64,000 nt of DNA, taken from the NCBI GenBank assembly GCA_037128935.1, contig JBAXVQ010000002.1:10391-74390 (forward strand). The letters run 5' to 3'. This DNA is from a bacterium (GTDB lineage: Bacteria > Patescibacteriota > CG2-30-54-11 > JBAXVQ01). Below the pieces are notes generated by a model, which saw only the letters and a program-made list of their open reading frames with translations, was not told where the DNA came from and did not search any database. Shown piece after piece: positions 3,249-44,460 of the stretch (position 1 is the stretch's first letter; each line of letters starts with the position of its first letter). The position numbers and the translations under genes are program-made.

Positions 3249-3315
3249 GTATCTTTTTTCTTACTAAAATAAGCATTAAAAACTCAATGTAATAAATCAC
3301 GACTGATATCGTTTT

Positions 3316-3963
3316 ATGACTATAGATGCTACTAACAACTCGTTGCAAGAACAGGATTCTGTTGTAGGGACAGATCCTACACCTGAGATTCTTAACAGAT
3401 GGCTGGAAGATGCTCGAACTGGGATGACGGCTTTTGACAACCTTTATGATTACTATTTTCCGAAAATTTATAATTATGTTTATTATCGAGTCGGAAATAG
3501 GGAGCATGCAGAAGATATGACATCAGAAGTTTTTATAAAAGTTATTTCGCGATTTGAGACCTTTTCAGGTGATTGTCAAGCCTTTACTGGTTGGATCTAT
3601 CGCATTGCAGGTAACTCTATTACTGATTATTATCGTTTGGGTCAACGGAAGACTCAGGTGCATTATGTTGATGAAACTGACCTTATTGGACTTGTGGATT
3701 CTTCTGCTACTGAGGTGGAAGTCAATTTTATTGATGCCATTGATAAGGAAAGACTGATGAGCGAGGTTCGAGAATCTATTAATACCTTGCCGGCTATTGA
3801 ACAGGAAATTATTACTTTGAAGTTTTTTGAAGGTTTGGATAACAAGACAATTGCTGAAGTTATGAATATGAAACAAGGCAATTTTAATGTTCGACTTCAC
3901 CGAACGGTTGAGAAACTCAAGACTCTTCTCGGTGGAAAAATGGGTACTGTTCATCATGTCTAA
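3316..3963 (+). CDS. ECF-type RNA polymerase sigma factor (sigma-70 regions 2 and 4)
   Basis: Region 2 block (EDMTSEVFIKV...FTGWIYRIAGNSITDYYR) and region 4 HTH (LPAIEQEIITLKFFEGLDNKTIAEVMNMKQGNFNVRLHR). Confidence 0.85.
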   Translation: MTIDATNNSLQEQDSVVGTDPTPEILNRWLEDARTGMTAFDNLYDYYFPKIYNYVYYRVGNREHAEDMTSEVFIKVISRFETFSGDCQAFTGWIYRIAGNSITDYYRLGQRKTQVHYVDETDLIGLVDSSATEVEVNFIDAIDKERLMSEVRESINTLPAIEQEIITLKFFEGLDNKTIAEVMNMKQGNFNVRLHRTVEKLKTLLGGKMGTVHHV

Positions 3964-6148
3964 GCAAAGACCAATACGGAACAATGATTTTACAGATGGG
4001 CAATTTGAAGCCTTGTTGACTATGGCTCGTCCTGGTGTTGCCTCTCCCCGCCTGGATTTTAAAGAAAATTTGCGTTCGAATCTTCGAAGTATTTATGCCA
4101 AGAAAGTTTCTGAACAACGCTCTGTTTCGTCAAGTGAACAGTACTCTTTAGTTGAACGTTTTCGTCATGCTGTTATGATGAGATTTCCTCGCTGGGTTCT
4201 CGCTCCTTTTGTATTTATGCTTTTTGCCTCTTCACTCACTACGTATGCATACACTAATTCTAGTGTTACAAATAAAAGTTCTCTTTTTATTCTGAAGCAG
4301 ACTATCGAGAGTGTTCAACTTTCTCTAGCATTTTCTCAGCAGAAGAAGGTTGAGACCTATTTAGCTTTTTCAGAGAGAAGGCTTCAGGAAGCTCGTTTTC
4401 TTGCCAGTCAGGGCGAGCTTGATCCTTCAACATTGATTGAGATAAATGAGAATCTTAACCAGTCTCTTCAAGTGCTTCAACAGGTGAAAGACCCACAGGA
4501 ACAGCAAAAGTTGATTGCTCTTGTAACTTCTACGTCTTCCCAGAATCTTACTGGGTTACGTGAGATTGCTTCACAAGTTGTTGAACATAATGACGAATAC
4601 TCATCACTTGATCAACCGAATACGACATCTGCGTCGGTTTCTCCTGAAGTGGCGTCTCTTGCCCAGGTAATGAATAATGTTACAAATACCACTTCTTCTG
4701 ACTTTATTCAAGAAAAAATTGATTCATCTTCCTCTCCCACAGCTTTTTCTGAACTTCATCATATCAATATTAGTAGTGTTCCTCCGCAGATTTTAGGAAC
4801 AAAAGGTTCATCAACTATTGTTGCTGCTCTGTTTGATCAGGCTGGAAATGATGTTACGAAACGGAATGATATTGTTTATTCTTGGAAAATACTTTCTGGG
4901 GCAGGTAATTTACAACAGATTCAGCCTAATCAAGTATTTTACACAACTTCTGAGATCCCTTCTGATTCAAAAACGGCTGTTATAGAGGTGATTGCTTCTT
5001 CAAACGGAAATTCAGTATCTAATAAGGTTTCGATTTTATTTGTTCACCCTATTGAAACTGTTGATATTGTAACTACCTTTGGTTCTGCTTTGTCGCTTTC
5101 TGGATTTACAAATGCTCAATTGAGTGCCAAGGTTGGAGTAAAATCAGAATTTTCAGACATTGGTCAACGGTTAGTTTATAAATGGACTGTACTTGACGGT
5201 AAGGTTCTGCTTTTAAATCCTTCTGCCCAGTCTACTACTATTCAACCTCAGCAATTGGGCAATGCTACGGTTCAACTTGATGTGTTCTATGGTGATGATG
5301 TAATAAGTCGACAATTTACGTTTACGGTTTTATCAGATGGTGAAACTGTTACAATAACGCCAGACATTTCTTCTTCCCCTACTGTTCCACTTCCTCAAGA
5401 AACAAAAGTAAAAACACCTTATCCAGTACTTTCTACTACACCCGAAGCTTCAGATAAGAAATATTATGTACGTATGACTTCTTCAAGTCAGGCTTTGACT
5501 GGTGGTCAGACTGCTCAAGTTAAGTTTGTTGTAAGTGATGAAAACTGGGTGCTTTATCCTGATGAGTTAGTGAAGGCGATCTTGACAGGCATAGGTTCTT
5601 TATCAGGAGTTAACAGCAATGGGGATGGCACATATACAGCTATCTATACTGCTCCTGCGACCATTGCCCACCAAACGACGGTGACGATTTCAGCTACTAT
5701 TAGTAATCGTTTTCAACCAGTGCAGTCATCACTGGTGCTTACTCTTTACCCTAAAAATATGGGTATTACTGCGGGTTCTGTTTCTGGGAAGCCTGGAGAT
5801 ATTGTAGCGATTCCTTTAACATTTTTGGTCCCTAAATATGTTTCGCTTCAAACGTGTGATTTTGTTGTGCGTTTGCCGTATAACACTCGTTTTGTTTCTG
5901 GGGGCGAACTAGTCGGTAATAATGTTCATTACAACTGCTCTTCTGAAGGTGCTGCAATGCTTAGAGTACAGATAAATGAGAGTGTGCAAGCTACTAGTTT
6001 AAGAATTATTATTCTGAACGCCACAGCTGTTGATGCTACAGGGGAAACAATTGGGGTAAAACTAACTTCTGGTGTGATTGAAATTAAAGGGTTAACGCCT
6101 ACACCTGCACCAGTTTATACAAAAATTCCTGCAAATAAATCTCTTTAA
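3956..6148 (+). CDS. membrane-anchored putative anti-sigma protein with DUF5667-like, Ig-like and C-terminal cohesin-like regions
   Basis: The ATG at 3956 overlaps the sigma stop (ATGTCTAA). One TM segment (WVLAPFVFMLFASSL) is followed by a helical DUF5667-like segment, repeated beta-rich segments, and a C-terminal ITAGSVSGKPGDIVAIPLTFL... block resembling a cohesin domain. The ORF track gives an upstream alternative start at 3887. Confidence 0.55.
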   Translation: MSKQRPIRNNDFTDGQFEALLTMARPGVASPRLDFKENLRSNLRSIYAKKVSEQRSVSSSEQYSLVERFRHAVMMRFPRWVLAPFVFMLFASSLTTYAYTNSSVTNKSSLFILKQTIESVQLSLAFSQQKKVETYLAFSERRLQEARFLASQGELDPSTLIEINENLNQSLQVLQQVKDPQEQQKLIALVTSTSSQNLTGLREIASQVVEHNDEYSSLDQPNTTSASVSPEVASLAQVMNNVTNTTSSDFIQEKIDSSSSPTAFSELHHINISSVPPQILGTKGSSTIVAALFDQAGNDVTKRNDIVYSWKILSGAGNLQQIQPNQVFYTTSEIPSDSKTAVIEVIASSNGNSVSNKVSILFVHPIETVDIVTTFGSALSLSGFTNAQLSAKVGVKSEFSDIGQRLVYKWTVLDGKVLLLNPSAQSTTIQPQQLGNATVQLDVFYGDDVISRQFTFTVLSDGETVTITPDISSSPTVPLPQETKVKTPYPVLSTTPEASDKKYYVRMTSSSQALTGGQTAQVKFVVSDENWVLYPDELVKAILTGIGSLSGVNSNGDGTYTAIYTAPATIAHQTTVTISATISNRFQPVQSSLVLTLYPKNMGITAGSVSGKPGDIVAIPLTFLVPKYVSLQTCDFVVRLPYNTRFVSGGELVGNNVHYNCSSEGAAMLRVQINESVQATSLRIIILNATAVDATGETIGVKLTSGVIEIKGLTPTPAPVYTKIPANKSL

Positions 6149-6226
6149 TTTTGAAGTTAAATTGGCTGGGTTTAAAAATGGGAGAAGGTAAGTTTTTTTA
6201 TATGTTTATGGCTCATTGGATTTAGC

Positions 6227-6302
<76 letters not shown>

Positions 6303-6376
6303 AATTTTGCCTTAATGATCATAGCATTCAGAGTTGAGAAGGTGAAGAGGGGAATTTTTGATGGTTTTGGAGTGGG

Positions 6377-7051
6377 TTATACAACTGTTTTCTTGCGAGA
6401 AAATAATGTTTTAGGAATTTCAAAGGGGCTTCCTTCGCCGTCTTCTTCATGAGCTTTAGACGTAGTGTGACTAGATCCTGATGAGTGTTCATCGTTTGAA
6501 GATGAGGATCTTGGGATAAGGTTTTCTATTGTAGCCCATTCGCTGTTAAATGTTGAGGGAATAATGATGGCTACTTCATCCCCAACCTGAGCTCGATAGT
6601 AGGAAACTGAAGCAGCTAGTACTCTGTATTGTTTGTTGGCAACAGCTACTTTGTATGTTTTTCCGTCTTGAACCAAAACACCTGTGGTAAATTTTCTATC
6701 GACAGGTCCGATTTGTTTGTATGTAAAAGTTCCATCAGGTCCAATTATCAGTTTTAATTTGTCACCATAGACAAGTTTTGATTTACTGGCGTAGTTTGGC
6801 GGGACGGAGTATTTCTTTTTGTCTGGGCCGTACATACTTTCACCGTCAAACACACCTTCGATAACTTTGCCATCTTCAGACATCGATAGGTCCGAAAGTT
6901 GAAGCTTTCCGTTGGATTGGTAATCTATTTCTTCTGGGGGCCCAGTTGCGGTACCACCAAGGATCTGATTCAGCAGTTCTTTTGCTTGTGCAATGTTCGT
7001 TTCGGCATTTACCAATAACGATCGCACAATTTCGATTTTGTTTTTATCCAT
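6377..7051 (-). CDS. hypothetical protein
   Basis: 224-aa ORF with a helical N-terminus, a beta-rich core and a Ser/His/acidic tail. No family recognised. Confidence 0.5.
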   Translation of the reverse strand: MDKNKIEIVRSLLVNAETNIAQAKELLNQILGGTATGPPEEIDYQSNGKLQLSDLSMSEDGKVIEGVFDGESMYGPDKKKYSVPPNYASKSKLVYGDKLKLIIGPDGTFTYKQIGPVDRKFTTGVLVQDGKTYKVAVANKQYRVLAASVSYYRAQVGDEVAIIIPSTFNSEWATIENLIPRSSSSNDEHSSGSSHTTSKAHEEDGEGSPFEIPKTLFSRKKTVV

Positions 7052-7149
7052 CTAGAGTCTCCTTACATCTTTTTTTGTTTTTTTTTAGTATTAGATTACA
7101 ATAGTAACAGAAATACTACTGTTTGTCAACGTTTTAGAAGGATAATCCT

Positions 7150-39738: not shown

Positions 39739-41694
39739 TTGAACAACCGGCGGGATATGGGTAAGCTAGAGTCAACTCTTGTTAACAAGGAACCACCAAT
39801 GGGGCAATATGACAGCATCATCTCCACCTACCTCTCCAACCTCCAACGAGAATACGCCACCGGACAAGCTCGTGAGCATTCTTACCGCCCTGCTCTCAAA
39901 GCCTTGATCGAAGGGCTTGCCCCGCAGGTGATGGCACAGAACGAACCCGCACGGGTGCAGTGTGGTGCCCCTGATTTTATCGTCACTCGGAAAGGCATCC
40001 CACTTGGCTACATCGAGGCAAAAGATATTGGCTCCAGTGATCTCAAAGGAACGAGTAAAGCAGGAAACAAAGAACAGTTTGACCGTTACAAAGCCTCGTT
40101 GAGTAACATCATTTTCACCGACTACCTCGACTTCCACCTCTACCATGACGGGGAACTGATCACCACTATTGCTCTTGCCGAGCTGACGGACAAAGGCTTG
40201 CAACCACTTCCCGAACACTTTTCGCTGTTCGAGAACTTGATCAAAGACTTTTGCACACACAGTGGGCAAACTATTCGGAGTTCAAAAAAACTTGCAGAAA
40301 TGATGGCGGGGAAAGCTCGGTTGCTTTCTGACGTGTTGGAGAAAGCACTCACCAGCGATGAGTCCTGCAACGAGGACAGCACCCTCAAAGACCAGATGAA
40401 TGCATTTAAGCAGATTCTTATTCACGACATCACGCCAAAAGCCTTTGCTGACGTGTACGCACAGACGATTGCCTATGGTATGTTTGCCGCTCGGTTGCAT
40501 GACCCTACGTTGGCAACCTTTAGCAGGCAGGAAGCCGCTGAACTCATCCCGAAATCTAATCCTTTTCTTCGTAAACTCTTTGGCTATATCGCTGGACCGG
40601 ATATTGACGACCGTATACTTTGGATCGTTGACGATCTTGTGGATATTTTCCTCGCTTGCAACGTTGAAGAACTGCTCAAAGACTACGGCAAAGCTACAAA
40701 GATGGAAGATCCCATCATTCATTTCTACGAAACATTCTTGAGCGAATACGACCCCGCACTCCGCAGAGCCCGTGGTGTTTGGTATACCCCGCAGCCTGTT
40801 GTCAGCTTTATCGTGCGAGCCGTTGACGATATTCTCAAAACCGAGTTTGGGTTACCGATGGGGCTGGCGGATAGCAGCAAGATTTCCATCACCTTACCAG
40901 GGCAAGGGAAAAAGGGCACAACAACGCGGGAAGTCCACAAAGTCCAAATCCTCGACCCCGCCACCGGAACAGGAACGTTCTTGGCAGAAGTGGTCAAACA
41001 TGTTCACAAACGGTTCGAAGGGCAGCAGGGGATATGGAGTACCTACGCAGAAAACAACCTTTTACCCCGTCTCAACGGCTTTGAGCTCCTCATGGCGAGC
41101 TACGCCATGGCACACCTCAAACTCGACCTCCTACTCACAGAAACAGGCTACAAACCGACAAAAGACCAGCGTTTCCGTGTCTATCTCACGAATAGTCTCG
41201 AAGAACACCATCCCGATACAGGAACGCTTTTTGCTAGCTGGCTGAGTACCGAGGCGAATGAGGCGAACCATATCAAGCGGGATGCTCCGGTGATGGTGGT
41301 GATGGGGAATCCGCCGTATAGTGTGAGTTCTTCAAATTCCGGTGACTGGATTACTCACTTGATGAAAGACTACAAAAAAGACCTAAATGAGCGAAACATT
41401 CAGCCATTGTCTGATGATTACATCAAATTTATCCGCTTTGGACAGCATTTTATTCAGAAAAACGGTGAGGGGATTTTGGCATATATTTCCAACAACAGCT
41501 TTATCGATGGGATTATTCACCGCCAGATGAGGAAAGATCTCATGGAAACATTTGATAAAGTCTACATCTTCGACCTCCACGGCAATGCCAAAAAGAAAGA
41601 AACCGCTCCAGATGGGAGCAAGGATGAGAATGTGTTTGATATTCAGCAGGGTGTGAGTATCAATATTTTTGTAAAAAAGAAACCTTCCAGTTAG
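39739..41694 (+). CDS. N-terminal part of a fused Type IIG/IIL-like restriction-modification enzyme (PD-ExK nuclease + gamma N6-adenine methyltransferase), truncated by a stop
   Basis: EHSYRPALK...GAPDFIV...GYIEAKDIG (PD..EAK) is encoded at 39970-40023. Other motifs are HFYETFL..YDP..R...GVWYTPQPVV, motif I ILDPATGTGTFL (40954-40974) and motif IV NPPY (41308-41319). The probable true start is MGQYD at 39799. Codons are visibly C-ending, unlike the neighbouring genes. Confidence 0.75.
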   Translation: MNNRRDMGKLESTLVNKEPPMGQYDSIISTYLSNLQREYATGQAREHSYRPALKALIEGLAPQVMAQNEPARVQCGAPDFIVTRKGIPLGYIEAKDIGSSDLKGTSKAGNKEQFDRYKASLSNIIFTDYLDFHLYHDGELITTIALAELTDKGLQPLPEHFSLFENLIKDFCTHSGQTIRSSKKLAEMMAGKARLLSDVLEKALTSDESCNEDSTLKDQMNAFKQILIHDITPKAFADVYAQTIAYGMFAARLHDPTLATFSRQEAAELIPKSNPFLRKLFGYIAGPDIDDRILWIVDDLVDIFLACNVEELLKDYGKATKMEDPIIHFYETFLSEYDPALRRARGVWYTPQPVVSFIVRAVDDILKTEFGLPMGLADSSKISITLPGQGKKGTTTREVHKVQILDPATGTGTFLAEVVKHVHKRFEGQQGIWSTYAENNLLPRLNGFELLMASYAMAHLKLDLLLTETGYKPTKDQRFRVYLTNSLEEHHPDTGTLFASWLSTEANEANHIKRDAPVMVVMGNPPYSVSSSNSGDWITHLMKDYKKDLNERNIQPLSDDYIKFIRFGQHFIQKNGEGILAYISNNSFIDGIIHRQMRKDLMETFDKVYIFDLHGNAKKKETAPDGSKDENVFDIQQGVSINIFVKKKPSS

Positions 41695-41707
41695 GAGAAA
41701 ACGAAAC

Positions 41708-41935
41708 ATGACCAATACAAAAGAACGATCTTCCCAAGGAATTTTTGAGAGTATCAGAAAGTACGATGAACAGAGGAACGAGTACTGGAATGCTCGTGAT
41801 TTAGCCAAAATACTAGAATACGATGATTATCGCAATTTCAAGAAAGTCATTGTTAAGGCTGTTGAATCCTGCAAAAACAGCGGTATAAAGCCACAAAACC
41901 ATTTCGTTGACTTCAACGAAATGGTTTCTAGTTGA
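41708..41935 (+). pseudogene. dinD: 5' fragment of a dinD-like (DNA-damage-inducible protein D / BRO-N-like) gene
   Basis: The 75-aa ORF ...YWNARDLAKILEYDDYRNFKKVIVKAVESCKNSGIKPQNHFVDFNEMVS parallels the remembered first third of E. coli DinD (about 270 aa) and stops abruptly. It has its own GGAG RBS. Confidence 0.55.
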
Positions 41936-41950
41936 AAAAAGGGACAACCA

Positions 41951-43891
41951 ATGAGTAATAATGACAAACGCAAAAAACCGCTCGCACAGGTCTTTCATAG
42001 TGAAATCTATGGGTTACGGGAAGAGAAGTATGCTTTTCTGGATGGTAATTCATTGGGTACTATTCCTTGGAGTAAGCTGGAGGTGAGTGCGCCGAATTAT
42101 TTCTTTGTGAAGAAGGATTTTGCAGGGAGTGGGGTGTATGAGTCGGGGGTTAAGATTGATGAGATATTTCCTTTGAATTCAAGTGGTGTAAAAACACATC
42201 GTGATGATTTTGTTATTGACTTCGATAAAACAGTTCTGCAACAGCGAATTGCACGGTTCTATAGCAAAGAAATGATGGTGGCGGAGGCTGCGGAAAAGTA
42301 TGGTTTAAAAGATAATCGTGATTGGCAGATAGAAAAAGCAAAAAGGCTTGGTGTTTTTGATGAACACAAAGTGAGCAAAATACTATATCGTCCTTTTGAC
42401 GAACGTTGGATTTATTATGATAGTAATGTTATTGATTTTGATCGAAGAAAAGTGATGAGTAATATTACTATCACTAAAGAAAATTTAGGATTAGTGACGT
42501 GTAGACAGCAAAGTTCTTTTGATTTTCAGCATGTACTTATAAGCAGAAATCTAGTTGATATGTGTACTGTTTCATCACAAACCAAAGAAACTGGTTATGT
42601 TTTCCCCCTCTACCTCTACCCCGAACCCACCACTCAGCGGAACGGGGAAATCCCCCTAGCCCCCTTTGAGAAAGGGGGGACTGGAGCGGATCAAAGTCCC
42701 CTTTATCAAAGGGGATTTAGGGGATTGCATGATGAAAATGAACATCCTCATAGAACCCCCAACCTCAACATGGCCATCGTCAAAGAGATTGAAGAAAAGC
42801 TAGGATTGCGGTTTGTGGCGGAGAAAGGGGAAATCCCCCTTGCCCCCTTTGAGAAAGGGGGGACTGGAATGGAGACTGCTCAAAGTTCCCTTTCACAAAG
42901 GGGATTTAGGGGATTAAAGATTAATCCTGAAATAGTAAACATCCCATTCAATCCCAAACTTAAAGAGCGAGCAACACAGTTGAGAAATAATGCAACACCT
43001 GCAGAAAAAAAACTTTGGGATGAAGTCCTTTCGCAGGATCGTTTTGAAGGGCTGCGATTTCTCAGACAAAAACCGATTGATAATTTCATAGTTGATTTTT
43101 ACTGTTCAAAACTACTACTTGTTATCGAGCTTGATGGTGAATCACATGATGAGACACAAGAATATGATGAAGATCGAACAGCTAAACTGGCTGAGTTTGG
43201 GATACGTGTGATCCGTTACGCCAATGATGAAGTACTGAAGAATATTGACGGGGTGTATGAGGATTTGTTGAAGAAAGTGGAGGAGAGAGGGAAGGAACTG
43301 GAAGAAATCCCCCTAGCCCCCTTTGAGAAAGGGGGGACTGGAGTTCCAGCTGCCGAAGGCAGTAATCAAAGTCCCCTTTCTCAAAGGGGATTTAGGGGAT
43401 TTCCCCCTGCATTTTCCCCCATCGACCTTCTCGACTACATCTACGCCGTCCTCCACAGCCCCACCTACCGAGAAACCTACAAAGAATTCCTCAAAATCGA
43501 CTTCCCCCGCGTTCCATACCCCACCAACCCCGATACTTTCTGGCAGCTCGTCACCCTCGGTGGCGAACTCCGCCAAATCCACCTCCTCGAATGCCCCACT
43601 GTCGAGAACTACATCACCCAATACCCCATCGACGGTGACAACACTGTCACCAAAACCGAATACAAAGACGGCAACGTCTACATCAACCCCACCCAATACT
43701 TCGCCAACGTCCCCGAGACCGCTTGGAACTTCTACATCGGAGGCTACCAACCCGCCCAAAAATGGCTCAAAGACCGCAAAACCCGAACACTCCAGTTTGA
43801 AGATATCCTCCACTACCAGAAAATCATCGTGGCACTCACAGAAACGGCGAGGATTATGGGGGAGATTGATGCGGTGGGAGTGGAAGAATAG
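41951..43891 (+). CDS. C-terminal part of the restriction-modification enzyme (Type ISP C-terminal-domain-like), carrying three element insertions and a DUF559 module
   Basis: AQVFHSEIYGLREEKY, YRPFDERWIYY, LYLYPE, PNLN..IVKEIEEKLGL, DLLDYIYAVLHSPTYRETYKEFLKIDFPRVP and FYIGGYQPAQKWLKDRK blocks match the remembered PF18135-type domain. Confidence 0.75.
   Translation: MSNNDKRKKPLAQVFHSEIYGLREEKYAFLDGNSLGTIPWSKLEVSAPNYFFVKKDFAGSGVYESGVKIDEIFPLNSSGVKTHRDDFVIDFDKTVLQQRIARFYSKEMMVAEAAEKYGLKDNRDWQIEKAKRLGVFDEHKVSKILYRPFDERWIYYDSNVIDFDRRKVMSNITITKENLGLVTCRQQSSFDFQHVLISRNLVDMCTVSSQTKETGYVFPLYLYPEPTTQRNGEIPLAPFEKGGTGADQSPLYQRGFRGLHDENEHPHRTPNLNMAIVKEIEEKLGLRFVAEKGEIPLAPFEKGGTGMETAQSSLSQRGFRGLKINPEIVNIPFNPKLKERATQLRNNATPAEKKLWDEVLSQDRFEGLRFLRQKPIDNFIVDFYCSKLLLVIELDGESHDETQEYDEDRTAKLAEFGIRVIRYANDEVLKNIDGVYEDLLKKVEERGKELEEIPLAPFEKGGTGVPAAEGSNQSPLSQRGFRGFPPAFSPIDLLDYIYAVLHSPTYRETYKEFLKIDFPRVPYPTNPDTFWQLVTLGGELRQIHLLECPTVENYITQYPIDGDNTVTKTEYKDGNVYINPTQYFANVPETAWNFYIGGYQPAQKWLKDRKTRTLQFEDILHYQKIIVALTETARIMGEIDAVGVEE
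42644..42726 (+). repeat. GC-rich quasi-palindromic element, copy 1 (83 bp)
   Basis: GGGGAAATCCCCCTAGCCCCCTTTGAGAAAGGGGGGACTGGA-GCGGAT-CAAAGTCCCCTTTATCAAAGGGGATTTAGGGGATT; translated as GEIPLAPFEKGGTGADQSPLYQRGFRGL. Confidence 0.85.
42827..42915 (+). repeat. GC-rich quasi-palindromic element, copy 2 (89 bp)
   Basis: Same arms as copy 1 with the central spacer ATGGAGACTGCT; translated as GEIPLAPFEKGGTGMETAQSSLSQRGFRGL. Confidence 0.85.
42916..43300 (+). mobile_element. DUF559 (Vsr-like PD-(D/E)xK endonuclease) module bracketed by element copies 2 and 3, in frame with the host ORF
   Basis: NPKLKERATQLRNNATPAEKKLWDEVL...LRFLRQKPIDNFIVDFYCSKLLLVIELDGESH...RTAKLAEFGIRVIRYANDEV is the canonical DUF559 pattern. 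The segment is AT-rich, between GC-rich flanks. Confidence 0.6.
43301..43407 (+). repeat. GC-rich quasi-palindromic element, copy 3 (about 105 bp)
   Basis: GAAGAAATCCCCCTAGCCCCCTTTGAGAAAGGGGGGACTGGA-GTTCCAGCTGCCGAAGGCAGTAAT-CAAAGTCCCCTTTCTCAAAGGGGATTTAGGGGATTTCCCCC. The right end is the reverse complement of the left end. Confidence 0.85.
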
Positions 43892-43992
43892 TAGCTTTGA
43901 GCTTTATTTTCCTCGTTGCAATAAATGATGAACAAGGCTGGATTGAAATCCGTAGAAAGTTTCGTTATAGCAGTGAAAACACTTGATTTGAA

Positions 43993-44068
43993 TGGTGCGC
44001 CAGGCAGGAATTGAACCTGCGACCCACGGTTTAGAAAACCGTTGCTCTATCCTCTGAGCTACTGGCGC
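43993..44068 (-). tRNA. tRNA-Arg (anticodon TCT), CCA encoded
   Basis: The reverse complement GCGCCAGTAGCTCAGAGGATAGAGCAACGGTTTTCTAAACCGTGGGTCGCAGGTTCAATTCCTGCCTGGCGCACCA folds as a cloverleaf. The anticodon stem is ACGGT/ACCGT with loop TTTCTAA. Confidence 0.9.
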
Positions 44069-44076
44069 ATAAAGTG

Positions 44077-44460
44077 TTATTTACTACGTAGAGGATCTTT
44101 TCCCCGGATATCTTCACCTGTTAATGTTGCTTCATTATTCTCGTATATATAGTACCAGAGATGACGATCTGGGCATCCTGTGATATTGCAATTATCTCCT
44201 AACCAAAAGGTTAAATATAATTTTCCATTGGTTAATTTATACTCTATGTCCGAGGAACATCCTGCAAACTGTGTACAAGGTTGAACGTTGGCAAGAGCAG
44301 GATTTTCTTCTTTTATAAGGTCAATTGCTTGTTGTGTCTGGGCATCGATATTTTTTGAGATTATGTCGATTTTGTTATTTCCTCTGCATGAAGTCAGCAA
44401 GGTTAAAGAAATAATACTTAAGACTAATACGGTTATGCGCAAAGACATTCGTTGTTCCAC
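44077..44460 (-). CDS. hypothetical lipoprotein
   Basis: Signal peptide with lipobox LLTSC; 127 aa; Cys-containing mature part. Confidence 0.55.
   Translation of the reverse strand: MEQRMSLRITVLVLSIISLTLLTSCRGNNKIDIISKNIDAQTQQAIDLIKEENPALANVQPCTQFAGCSSDIEYKLTNGKLYLTFWLGDNCNITGCPDRHLWYYIYENNEATLTGEDIRGKDPLRSK

Follow-up and report, generated by a model that had tools for sequence, protein, structure and literature searches.

The window analysed here, a 64,000-nt stretch of contig JBAXVQ010000002.1 (assembly GCA_037128935.1) from a bacterium of the Patescibacteriota, contains a split restriction-modification (RM) gene of Type IIG/IIL-like character. The C-terminal (specificity) half of the RM enzyme (41951..43891, forward strand) is a single open reading frame (ORF) of 646 codons that stays open through all of its insertions, and it matches PF18135 (Type_ISP_C; E = 4.7e-91) in two stretches, with PF04480 (DUF559) between them. 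Three copies of a GC-rich palindromic element lie within this ORF, two of which bracket the DUF559 module. The segment from 42827 to 43407 is probably a selfish cassette, bounded by palindromes, that encodes a Vsr-fold nuclease, resembles a homing endonuclease gene, and persists where it is in frame.

Element copy 1 (42644-42726, forward strand; nhmmer score 91.8 bits) is a solitary double-hairpin palindrome encoding residues 232-259, in the linker between LYLYPE.. and ..RTPNLN. Copy 2 (42827-42915, forward strand; residues 293-322; 101 bits) directly follows the conserved ..LGLRFVAEK and forms the 5' flank of the DUF559 cassette, and copy 3 (43301-43407, forward strand; residues 451-486; 94.8 bits) forms the 3' flank, being followed by FPPAF and the conserved SPIDLLDYIYAVLHSPTYR block. 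The three copies had been proposed at these coordinates in a first-pass annotation, and the left-arm 26-mer and the right-arm 20-mer each have exactly three perfect matches in the window, where shuffled sequences give expectations of 0.00 and 0.01; the coordinates held, except that the boundaries are approximate by about one base because the lengths of 83, 89 and 107 nt are all 2 mod 3. Neither arm core has a further site in the 64 kb even at 3 mismatches, and no fourth copy was detected in the window by an nhmmer profile built from the three. The stretch is thus not densely populated by the element as a resident repeat.

Each unit begins with GGGGAAATCCCCC-TAG and a hairpin (CCCCCTTT/GAG/AAAGGGGG), continues through a variable centre, and ends with a second hairpin (TCCCCTTT/NNN/AAAGGGGA) followed by TTTA-GGGGATT(TCCCC). 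The arms are 29-46 nt long and 76-88% complementary in all three copies, and every copy forms the long imperfect hairpin that had been described: the single-strand folding energies of copies 1, 2 and 3 are -23.2, -20.8 and -33.5 kcal/mol (z = -3.7, -2.7 and -5.6), copy 3 being the strongest hairpin, and on either strand the copies fold better than shuffled sequences (z from -2.7 to -5.9). The smaller hairpins reported inside the arms are present too: all five of the perfect GC-run mini-hairpins (stem of at least 7) in the whole window are located within the copies, including those at 42660-42678 and 42697-42715 in copy 1 and at 43317-43335 and 43372-43390 in copy 3. Each of the three begins in phase 0 relative to the codons of the ORF, and they share a reading frame, as first noted; only the host frame is free of stop codons in copies 1 and 3, and the +1 frame is open as well in copy 2, as the first-pass annotation had implied.

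Between copies 2 and 3 lies an intact DUF559 (Vsr-fold PD-(D/E)XK) nuclease module without its own stop codon (42916..43300, forward strand). The first-pass annotation had called it complete and in frame, and PF04480 is indeed matched over profile positions 2-108/109 (E = 1.5e-34 to 7.7e-36; 118.5-122.7 bits versus a cut-off of 20.6); the other Pfam matches inside the module (MTES_1575 and DUF2726) are weak. The invariant D/E/D/H/D columns of the family are all present, and by comparison with Vsr these residues are presumed to be catalytic. The window DUF559 matches PDB entry 3hrl at E = 3e-29 by sequence profile and, as a model, with a TM score of 0.82 and 33% identity, and the second-best structural neighbour of the model is 3r3p, the catalytic domain of I-Bth0305I (TM 0.73). 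In an AlphaFold model of the ORF product (mean predicted local distance difference test, pLDDT, of 80), the DUF559 and host segments are confident, and values below 50 are found at residues 229-264, 295-318 and 455-478, which match the three element-encoded stretches. The model predicts that the host domain and DUF559 fold independently and that the element-encoded peptides are disordered tethers.

The element-encoded peptides were compared with uninterrupted homologues of the specificity half (proteins P0016 and P0034), which read ...LYLYPEPNGQQTIDETEKRTPNL... and ...LGLTFTNEKETSKDTFAPIDILDY... without the EIPLAPFEKGG and QRGFRG peptides. These homologues have a 6-residue linker at the site that in the window is occupied by copy 2, DUF559 and copy 3, and a plain linker at the copy-1 site; therefore, the window peptides are insertions in linkers, as had been proposed, rather than ancestral protein sequence. 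The cassette site, in a surface loop, is between ..LGLxFxxEK and FxPIDxLDYIYAVLHSP of the specificity half, copy 1 being inside the first linker, and the reconstructed empty site of the cassette is ..GTGGCGGAGAAA|TTTTCCCCCATCGAC... Copy 1 belongs to the same repeat family but stands alone, in a second linker that tolerates insertion and that in other homologues (P0013, P0003, P0005, P0046 and P0062) contains unrelated hairpin peptides.

Among the 120 best of 3977 homologues, 32 proteins other than that of the window have an embedded DUF559 and 87 do not. Thirty of the 32 have it at the same site as the window, and two (P0104 and P0031) at a second loop, between ..YPIDGDNxVxKP.. and ..VYINxxQYF... 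The embedded modules can be sorted into four DUF559 subfamilies, which are 26-54% identical to one another; two of the subfamilies are present at both loops, making six subfamily-by-site combinations. As these comparisons show, in-frame insertion of DUF559 is recurrent across phyla, having taken place independently in many unrelated bacteria. All of the embedded modules are flanked by GC-rich repeat peptides, and inverted repeats were confirmed on the DNA in four loci. In three loci (L116, L117 and L118), terminal inverted repeats (TIRs) of 25-63 nt that are 83-100% complementary flank the embedded DUF559, with a mini-hairpin in each.

The TIR of the Bacteroidota loci is read in two frames, both upstream of DUF559 (as FPSxGGV.. 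or NSPPLEGC..) and downstream (as TPPxEGN or TTPxxGHPSxGGEF), and the element family of the window is likewise read in several frames elsewhere. Because the same repeat is translated in different frames, selection acts on the DNA element and on no more than the openness of the frame, not on the peptide. In the Bacteroidota loci, hairpins of the CCCCTCC..GGAGGGG type are confined to RM genes (27 of 27, with 0 in flanking DNA). Four near-identical proteins (P0006, P0008, P0009 and P0011) differ by whole 14-residue hairpin units (SPPxEGWSKTGVV) beside DUF559, indicating that the flanking repeats change copy number on short time scales, and P0010 has five tandem TTPVFDHPSGGGE units.

A filled and an empty allele were found at the second loop. 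The loci encoding P0031 and P0105 (L213 and L214, respectively) are syntenic, with a methylase half, a KilA-N gene, a specificity half and a PLD-like gene in that order, and their DNA is 91-96% identical (98.6% over the variable specificity region). The only large difference between them is that 568 nt in L213 (3544-4111) replace 13 nt, a net difference of 555 nt or 185 codons, and the ends of this indel are the exact outer ends of 42-nt TIRs (AAAATTCCCCTCCACTGGAGGGGTGCCCGCAGGGCGGAGTGGTT and ACCACCCCACCCTGCGGGCACCCCTCCGCAGGAGGGGAATTT). Gain or loss has affected the cassette as a whole, and the break positions coincide with its TIRs. Among these relatives it is optionally present at a fixed site with clean ends, as homing-type genes are, L213 being filled and both L214 and L215 empty. 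At the other DUF559 site, a solitary hairpin of the TIR type (TTPPVGHPSxGGEF) is present in L213 (one copy, at 3280) and in L214 (about 1.5 copies, at 3280-3316), and could be the footprint of an earlier cassette.

The nearest relatives of the window DUF559 are free-standing. All 120 of its best matches are DUF559-only proteins of 109-216 residues, in a search that did not return the window's own protein (P0001), which is present in the same collection. Identity of the window module to the other embedded modules is 40% on average and 44% at most, versus 52% on average and 60% at most to free-standing proteins; by this measure, the window cassette arrived independently of the other embedded ones. 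Three free-standing relatives (P0125, P0135 and P0140) have the same element upstream and in frame (..SSPLFQRGFRGLKINPTIHHIPYNP.. in P0125). The right arm of copy 2 plus LKINP constitutes a leader that is conserved in free-standing relatives: P0125 shares SPLxQRGFRGLKINP with copy 2 (SSPLFQRGFRGLKINP..IPYNP), its called start is just upstream of the right arm, and the order in its DNA (L206) is left arm, centre, right arm, leader, DUF559.

An in-frame ATG is present in the centre of copy 2 (42869..42871, forward strand), directly after the left-arm 26-mer that ends at 42868, and is equivalent in position to the called start of P0125 (4001 in L206). The first-pass annotation had located this ATG correctly, and its suggestion that the cassette could start its own translation gains support from that alignment; the ATG is a candidate for the original start codon of the cassette ORF. 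In L205-L207 (for example, L206 546-5640), the gene for P0125, the free-standing relative whose leader is closest to that of the window, lies 140 nt beyond the end of a different Type IIG gene, whose stop codon the element directly follows in L206 and which there encodes 1104 residues with N6_Mtase, MmeI_Mtase, Eco57I and TaqI_C matches, and the P0125 stop codon overlaps the start of a 391-residue ORF without a Pfam match. L206 may be another RM-associated landing site.

The association of DUF559 genes with hairpins was quantified in 78 metagenome loci encoding free-standing DUF559 relatives. Up to 150 nt from DUF559 the density of GC-run hairpins is 5.5 per kb, compared with 0.28 per kb for intergenic and 0.054 per kb for coding sequence farther away, an enrichment of 20- to 100-fold at the ends of DUF559 genes. 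There is a GC-run hairpin on at least one side in 70 of the 78 loci and on both sides in 29. In 29 loci an inverted repeat is common to the upstream and the downstream flank (8 in a control with mismatched partners), and in 21 a direct repeat (control, 5), and the hairpins have an orientation bias of 20:7 per side, with G4AT/ATC4 ends facing the DUF559 gene. DUF559 genes generally carry such hairpin repeats at both ends. The shared leader and these flank statistics indicate that the two bracketing copies in the window belong to the cassette and are not independent insertions. At one locus (L158), 51-nt direct repeats were considered as a target duplication and rejected, being part of a larger local duplication.

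The right-arm 20-mer, with the left-arm variant allowed, was found at more than 115 genome loci in very many phyla, against an estimated chance expectation of about 17 for the whole collection, and in 11 of these loci a DUF559 is no more than about 450 nt away. Many of the loci contain full-length relatives of the window element. None of the refuting conditions set in the first-pass annotation held, whether ancestral peptides in homologues, a lack of further copies, or a nuclease segment without a PF04480 match. The relatives are mostly extragenic; 6 of 55 are in open frames of at least 200 codons, including genes for enolase, cysteinyl-tRNA synthetase (CysRS) and a PHP-UvrD fusion. The CysRS gene (L046, reverse complement of 5537-7117) contains three in-frame copies of an IPLTPFxKGG-type hairpin, and the enolase gene (L105, 1-1410) contains an in-frame array (QIPLTPFVKGAEFVKGAEF...). 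In both cases the same repeat family has inserted into a housekeeping gene of an uncultured bacterium, in the manner of Rickettsia palindromic elements (RPEs). Tandem arrays of the hairpin motif are present in metagenome-assembled genomes (MAGs) of Desulfobacterota type (L012, 2023-2169, and L061, 4643-4762; 4 units about 42 nt apart), and in L173 (54-508) three full elements at 170-nt spacing are upstream of a DUF559 gene. A peptide profile of the three window elements had no match in the protein collection, but this search was insensitive, as it did not return the window's own P0001 either.

A possible course of events can be outlined, in which we have considerably less confidence than in the nature of the cassette. 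The DUF559 nuclease would break or nick either a palindromic repeat that stands alone or an empty site, and the cassette would be copied in by recombinational repair, the repeats serving as recognition sites, homology arms or both. If the break were in the centre of a solitary element, repair would restore a complete element on both sides of the cassette, the arrangement seen in the window, L176 and L152. The insertions observed would be in frame because those that break the frame fall to purifying selection, so that only frame-preserving insertions in tolerant loops survive. Initiation of the nuclease at its internal ATG is plausibly also held in check by the strong hairpin upstream.

Several observations weigh against a selfish nuclease cassette. 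Cleavage, homing or transposition has not been demonstrated for any DUF559 protein, as far as was found in the literature, and the module has about 110 residues without an extra DNA-binding domain, unlike I-Bth0305I with its NUMOD/HTH (helix-turn-helix) region. There is no other copy of the element in the window and hence no sign of activity in this genome. For the window's own gene no allele lacking the cassette was found, the filled and empty alleles being of a Bacteroidota-type cassette in the other loop, and no target-site duplication is evident at the L213/L214 junctions. Among viral contigs, the 20-mer was found in only 5 and DUF559 relatives in 3 loci, and no vector was identified. The in-frame state is partly a matter of ascertainment, as a protein search returns only those cases in which host and DUF559 are in a single ORF. 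Finally, all 33 of the embedded modules keep the D/E/D/H/D columns, which would be equally expected if DUF559 had been recruited by the host.

Such recruitment, in which DUF559 is a domesticated accessory domain of the RM enzyme (with a nicking or mismatch-directed, dimerization or regulatory role) and the hairpin repeats are accompanying linkers, is unlikely but accounts for some of the data. In addition to the intact columns, the 646-codon frame has been kept open, independent subfamilies in the same two loops could reflect selection for fusion, and P0125 adjoins a different Type IIG gene, which extends the association between DUF559 and RM beyond this domain. Yet the 87 homologues without DUF559 include near-identical alleles (P0105 versus P0031), the enzyme already has an N-terminal PD..EAK motif of its own, the tethers, for which disorder is predicted, consist of repeats whose reading frame varies between lineages, and members of the same DUF559 subfamily are in the great majority free-standing, most of them outside other genes.

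It is quite improbable that the association is a coincidence, such that palindromes resembling MITEs (miniature inverted-repeat transposable elements) pile up in tolerant linkers and a DUF559 gene came separately by illegitimate recombination. Solitary hairpins do occur without DUF559 in the same three linkers (copy 1 of the window; P0013 and P0018; the third loop of P0003, P0007 and P0012), and the window element family is in frame in the unrelated enolase, CysRS and PHP-UvrD fusion genes. This explanation is at odds with the enrichment and orientation bias of hairpins at DUF559 ends in 78 unrelated loci, with the conservation of the right-arm leader together with the ORF in free-standing relatives, with the removal of TIRs and gene together by the L213/L214 indel, and with the absence of other copies from the window and the restriction of the Bacteroidota hairpins to RM genes.

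There is a slimmer chance still that the flanking inverted repeats are recombination sites of an invertible switch, inversion of the cassette stopping the host frame and making the RM enzyme phase-variable. In a survey of predicted programmed inversions (PMC9881135), two annotations were enriched among the predicted targets, 'DUF559 domain-containing protein' with an odds ratio of 14.3 and 'Endonuclease domain-containing protein' with one of 9.6, and DUF1016 and RhuM family proteins were enriched neighbours. Inversion would truncate the host protein, since no ORF longer than 69 codons is available on the cassette's reverse strand, and one homologous locus (L117) holds two tandem specificity modules with repeated handles. 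On the other hand, the inversions of PMC9881135 are predictions, and their enrichment may merely reflect the TIRs described here; the inverted arms in the window are short and imperfect, at 29-34 nt and 79-88% complementarity; no invertase or recombinase is among the genes checked beside the RM gene; and free-standing DUF559 genes bear the same flanks with no gene to switch. A shufflon in the window was rejected, as it contains neither a second specificity module nor a long inverted repeat, and the inverted repeats in the window are not accompanied by the recombinase and/or silent modules that characterize RM systems with programmed inversion. The prospect of an assembly or chimera artefact is negligible, for although the source is a MAG contig and repeats can mis-assemble, the ORF is continuous, its host blocks keep the order that they have in homologues, an assembly from the Joint Genome Institute (JGI) contains the same protein (P0001), and the same architecture is found in dozens of independent assemblies, including a 3.75-Mb contig.

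Known kinds of intervening sequence were also sought. An Rfam search of the whole window at the gathering score returned two tRNAs only and no intron, and a permissive search of 41500-44200 gave chance-level microRNA and small nucleolar RNA matches on the hairpins, far under the gathering score, plus a tRNA. An intein was rejected because Pfam found no Hint-type domain, and an integron attC site, suggested by the conserved asymmetry of the imperfect palindrome, was rejected because the ends do not fit GTTRRRY/RYYYAAC by eye; no integrase was seen.

The host gene was examined for features that distinguish classes of RM enzyme. The N-terminal half (39739..41694, forward strand) has a PD..EAK nuclease-like N-terminus and a gamma-class N6-adenine methyltransferase (N6_Mtase, 5.4e-12; Eco57I, 2.2e-8; MmeI_Mtase, 1.3e-7; HSDR_N at 0.0041, under its cut-off) and is 79% identical in amino acid sequence to the matching part of the Bacteroidota homologue in L116. 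These methyltransferase matches and the weak nuclease match were the only ones that Pfam returned for this half, with no helicase motor. Full-length homologues of about 1050 residues combine N6_Mtase/Eco57I/MmeI_Mtase with Type_ISP_C, and the predicted structure of the host part of the specificity half matches the C-terminal regions of LlaGI, DrdV and LlaBIII at E of about 1e-11, the best motor-less peer being DrdV (Type IIL). The Type_ISP_C domain recognized in the first-pass annotation is thus present, but the helicase-like ATPase motor that a Type ISP enzyme has in the same polypeptide is not; the lack of a helicase, the relatives of about 1050 residues and the motor-less peer DrdV indicate a split Type IIG/IIL-like enzyme, not Type ISP. 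The C-terminal block of the host domain (43408..43891, forward strand) is highly conserved, with many invariant columns and a GC content of 0.53, and is 75-81% identical in amino acid sequence to uninterrupted homologues over that quarter of the query.

The linker that splits the RM gene contains an N-terminal DinD-like gene fragment of 75 codons (41708..41935, forward strand), whose match to NCBIfam NF008573 (DNA damage-inducible protein D; E = 1.1e-23) is confined to positions 3-74 of the 288 in the profile. A nearly perfect palindrome of 32 nt (AACCATTTCGTTGA..TCAACGAAATGGTT) at 41896-41927 ends this fragment, just before the specificity half. Homologous loci hold other genes at the same point, either DUF1016/YhcG (L116 and L117) or KilA-N (L213 and L214), indicating that the split is a conserved arrangement and not decay. 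The GC content of the window is 0.39, that of 39739-41300 is 0.50, and this block and the conserved C-terminal block both have a strong excess of C; values of 0.37-0.40, like that of the window as a whole, are found for DUF559 (0.39 for the module), the variable region of the specificity half, the DinD fragment and the last part of the methylase half. Such a mosaic of composition in the RM gene (39739-43891) suggests module exchange. A tRNA-Arg(TCT) gene (43993-44068, reverse strand) about 100 nt past the RM stop codon would fit a tRNA-linked island. In L117 (1-8200) there are two tandem modules, each consisting of DUF1016 and Type_ISP_C+DUF559, with an SLFN/AlbA_2-HATPase gene between them, and these modules are preceded and followed by short copies of the 3' end of the methylase half (homologous to 41581-41680 of the window); arranged in this way, they resemble a series of alternative cassettes for specificity, equipped with handles for recombination.

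DUF559 is a large bacterial family of 'unknown function', labelled 'endonuclease domain-containing protein' by NCBI. It would gain testable biology if seen as cargo: the cassette that carries it is bounded by repeats, is acquired and lost whole, and has repeatedly colonized the same loops of a defence enzyme. Besides introns and inteins, insertion in frame on disordered tethers would be a third route by which a nuclease gene can reside inside an essential or selected ORF. TIR-bounded cassettes may account for the prominence of DUF559 and 'endonuclease domain-containing' annotations in the inversion survey (PMC9881135). They are also a source of mis-annotation, as RM specificity subunits are named 'DUF559 domain-containing protein', and the insertion sites mark loops of Type IIG/IIL enzymes that tolerate domain insertions of 130 to more than 180 residues, which would be useful for engineering. 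More broadly, and with rather less than even confidence, we suggest that DUF559 genes with GC-rich double-hairpin terminal repeats may constitute an unrecognized cross-phylum class of mobile nuclease cassette, which spreads by nuclease-initiated gene conversion into palindromes or fixed loops, is kept in Type IIG/IIL RM enzymes as in-frame non-spliced domains, and, together with the DUF1016, KilA-N or DinD genes of the neighbouring linker, may promote the exchange of the specificity module situated between the two.

The closest parallels for the palindromes themselves are elements without a nuclease. RPEs, reportedly described by Ogata et al. in 2000, are in-frame palindromic repeats in protein genes; they are about 100 nt long, occur in ORFs without breaking the frame, are tolerated in surface or linker regions, and are present in high copy number in one genus without cargo. 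The window palindromes are likewise about 100 nt long, in frame and in linkers, and members of their family are found in enolase and CysRS genes. In contrast to RPEs, they bracket a nuclease gene, their family is spread thinly over many phyla, and the three copies in 64 kb are all in one gene. Allomyces mitochondria are said to contain double-hairpin elements (DHEs), a finding attributed to Paquin et al. in 2000. Mitochondrial GC clusters (as in yeast var1) and DHEs are GC-rich double-hairpin palindromes in AT-rich DNA that are optional between strains, can sit in frame in protein genes, and are linked to mobile endonuclease ORFs. They are organellar and have no DUF559, and their resemblance to the window element is of design only.

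With MITEs and with repetitive extragenic palindromes and bacterial interspersed mosaic elements (REP/BIME), the cassette and its solitary relatives have in common strong secondary structure, small size, non-autonomous solitary copies, and TIRs (the arms in the window and the 25-63-nt TIRs of relatives). The window element differs in having no DDE, HUH or RAYT partner and no GTAG/CGTC tags. The only associated gene encodes a small PD-(D/E)XK nuclease that alone is incapable of strand transfer and belongs to no known transposase family, and neither the target-site duplication nor the transposase-encoding parent expected of a MITE was found, as judged for the former at the L213/L214 junctions.

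Vsr-like (EDxHD) homing endonucleases are known from I-Bth0305I (PMC3239194), and 'fractured gene' ORFs from Dassa et al. 2009, as cited in PMC3239194; VSR, DUF559 and a group I intron homing endonuclease have been placed in one PD-(D/E)XK clade (PMC3424549). The cassette shares with these homing endonucleases its fold (TM 0.73 to 3r3p), its clade, and presence or absence at a fixed site of a conserved gene. They differ in possessing an N-terminal NUMOD/HTH region, which PF04480 proteins, that of the window included, do not have, so that the structural likeness is confined to the catalytic domain. Their genes reside in group I introns or split inteins or are free-standing phage genes, whereas the ORF in the window is neither within a self-splicing intron or intein nor free-standing beside its target, but is read through in the host frame.

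Full-text searching of the literature found no description of DUF559 cassettes, in agreement with the first-pass annotation, which could assign the insertion to no described class. The nearest concept is the ShiLan element (PMC11855218), a nuclease-bearing insertion in a gene of a DNA methylase family that has no splicing signature, is read through in the host frame, and is predicted to loop out of the host fold. The window insertion is of the same non-spliced, read-through, nuclease-bearing type. The ShiLan nuclease is an HNH endonuclease encoded in another frame, without palindromic termini, whereas that of the window is a Vsr-fold DUF559 protein encoded in the host frame and bounded by hairpins. 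Thus, the window insertion combines an in-frame selfish insertion with a homing-type nuclease, each of a kind that is already known.

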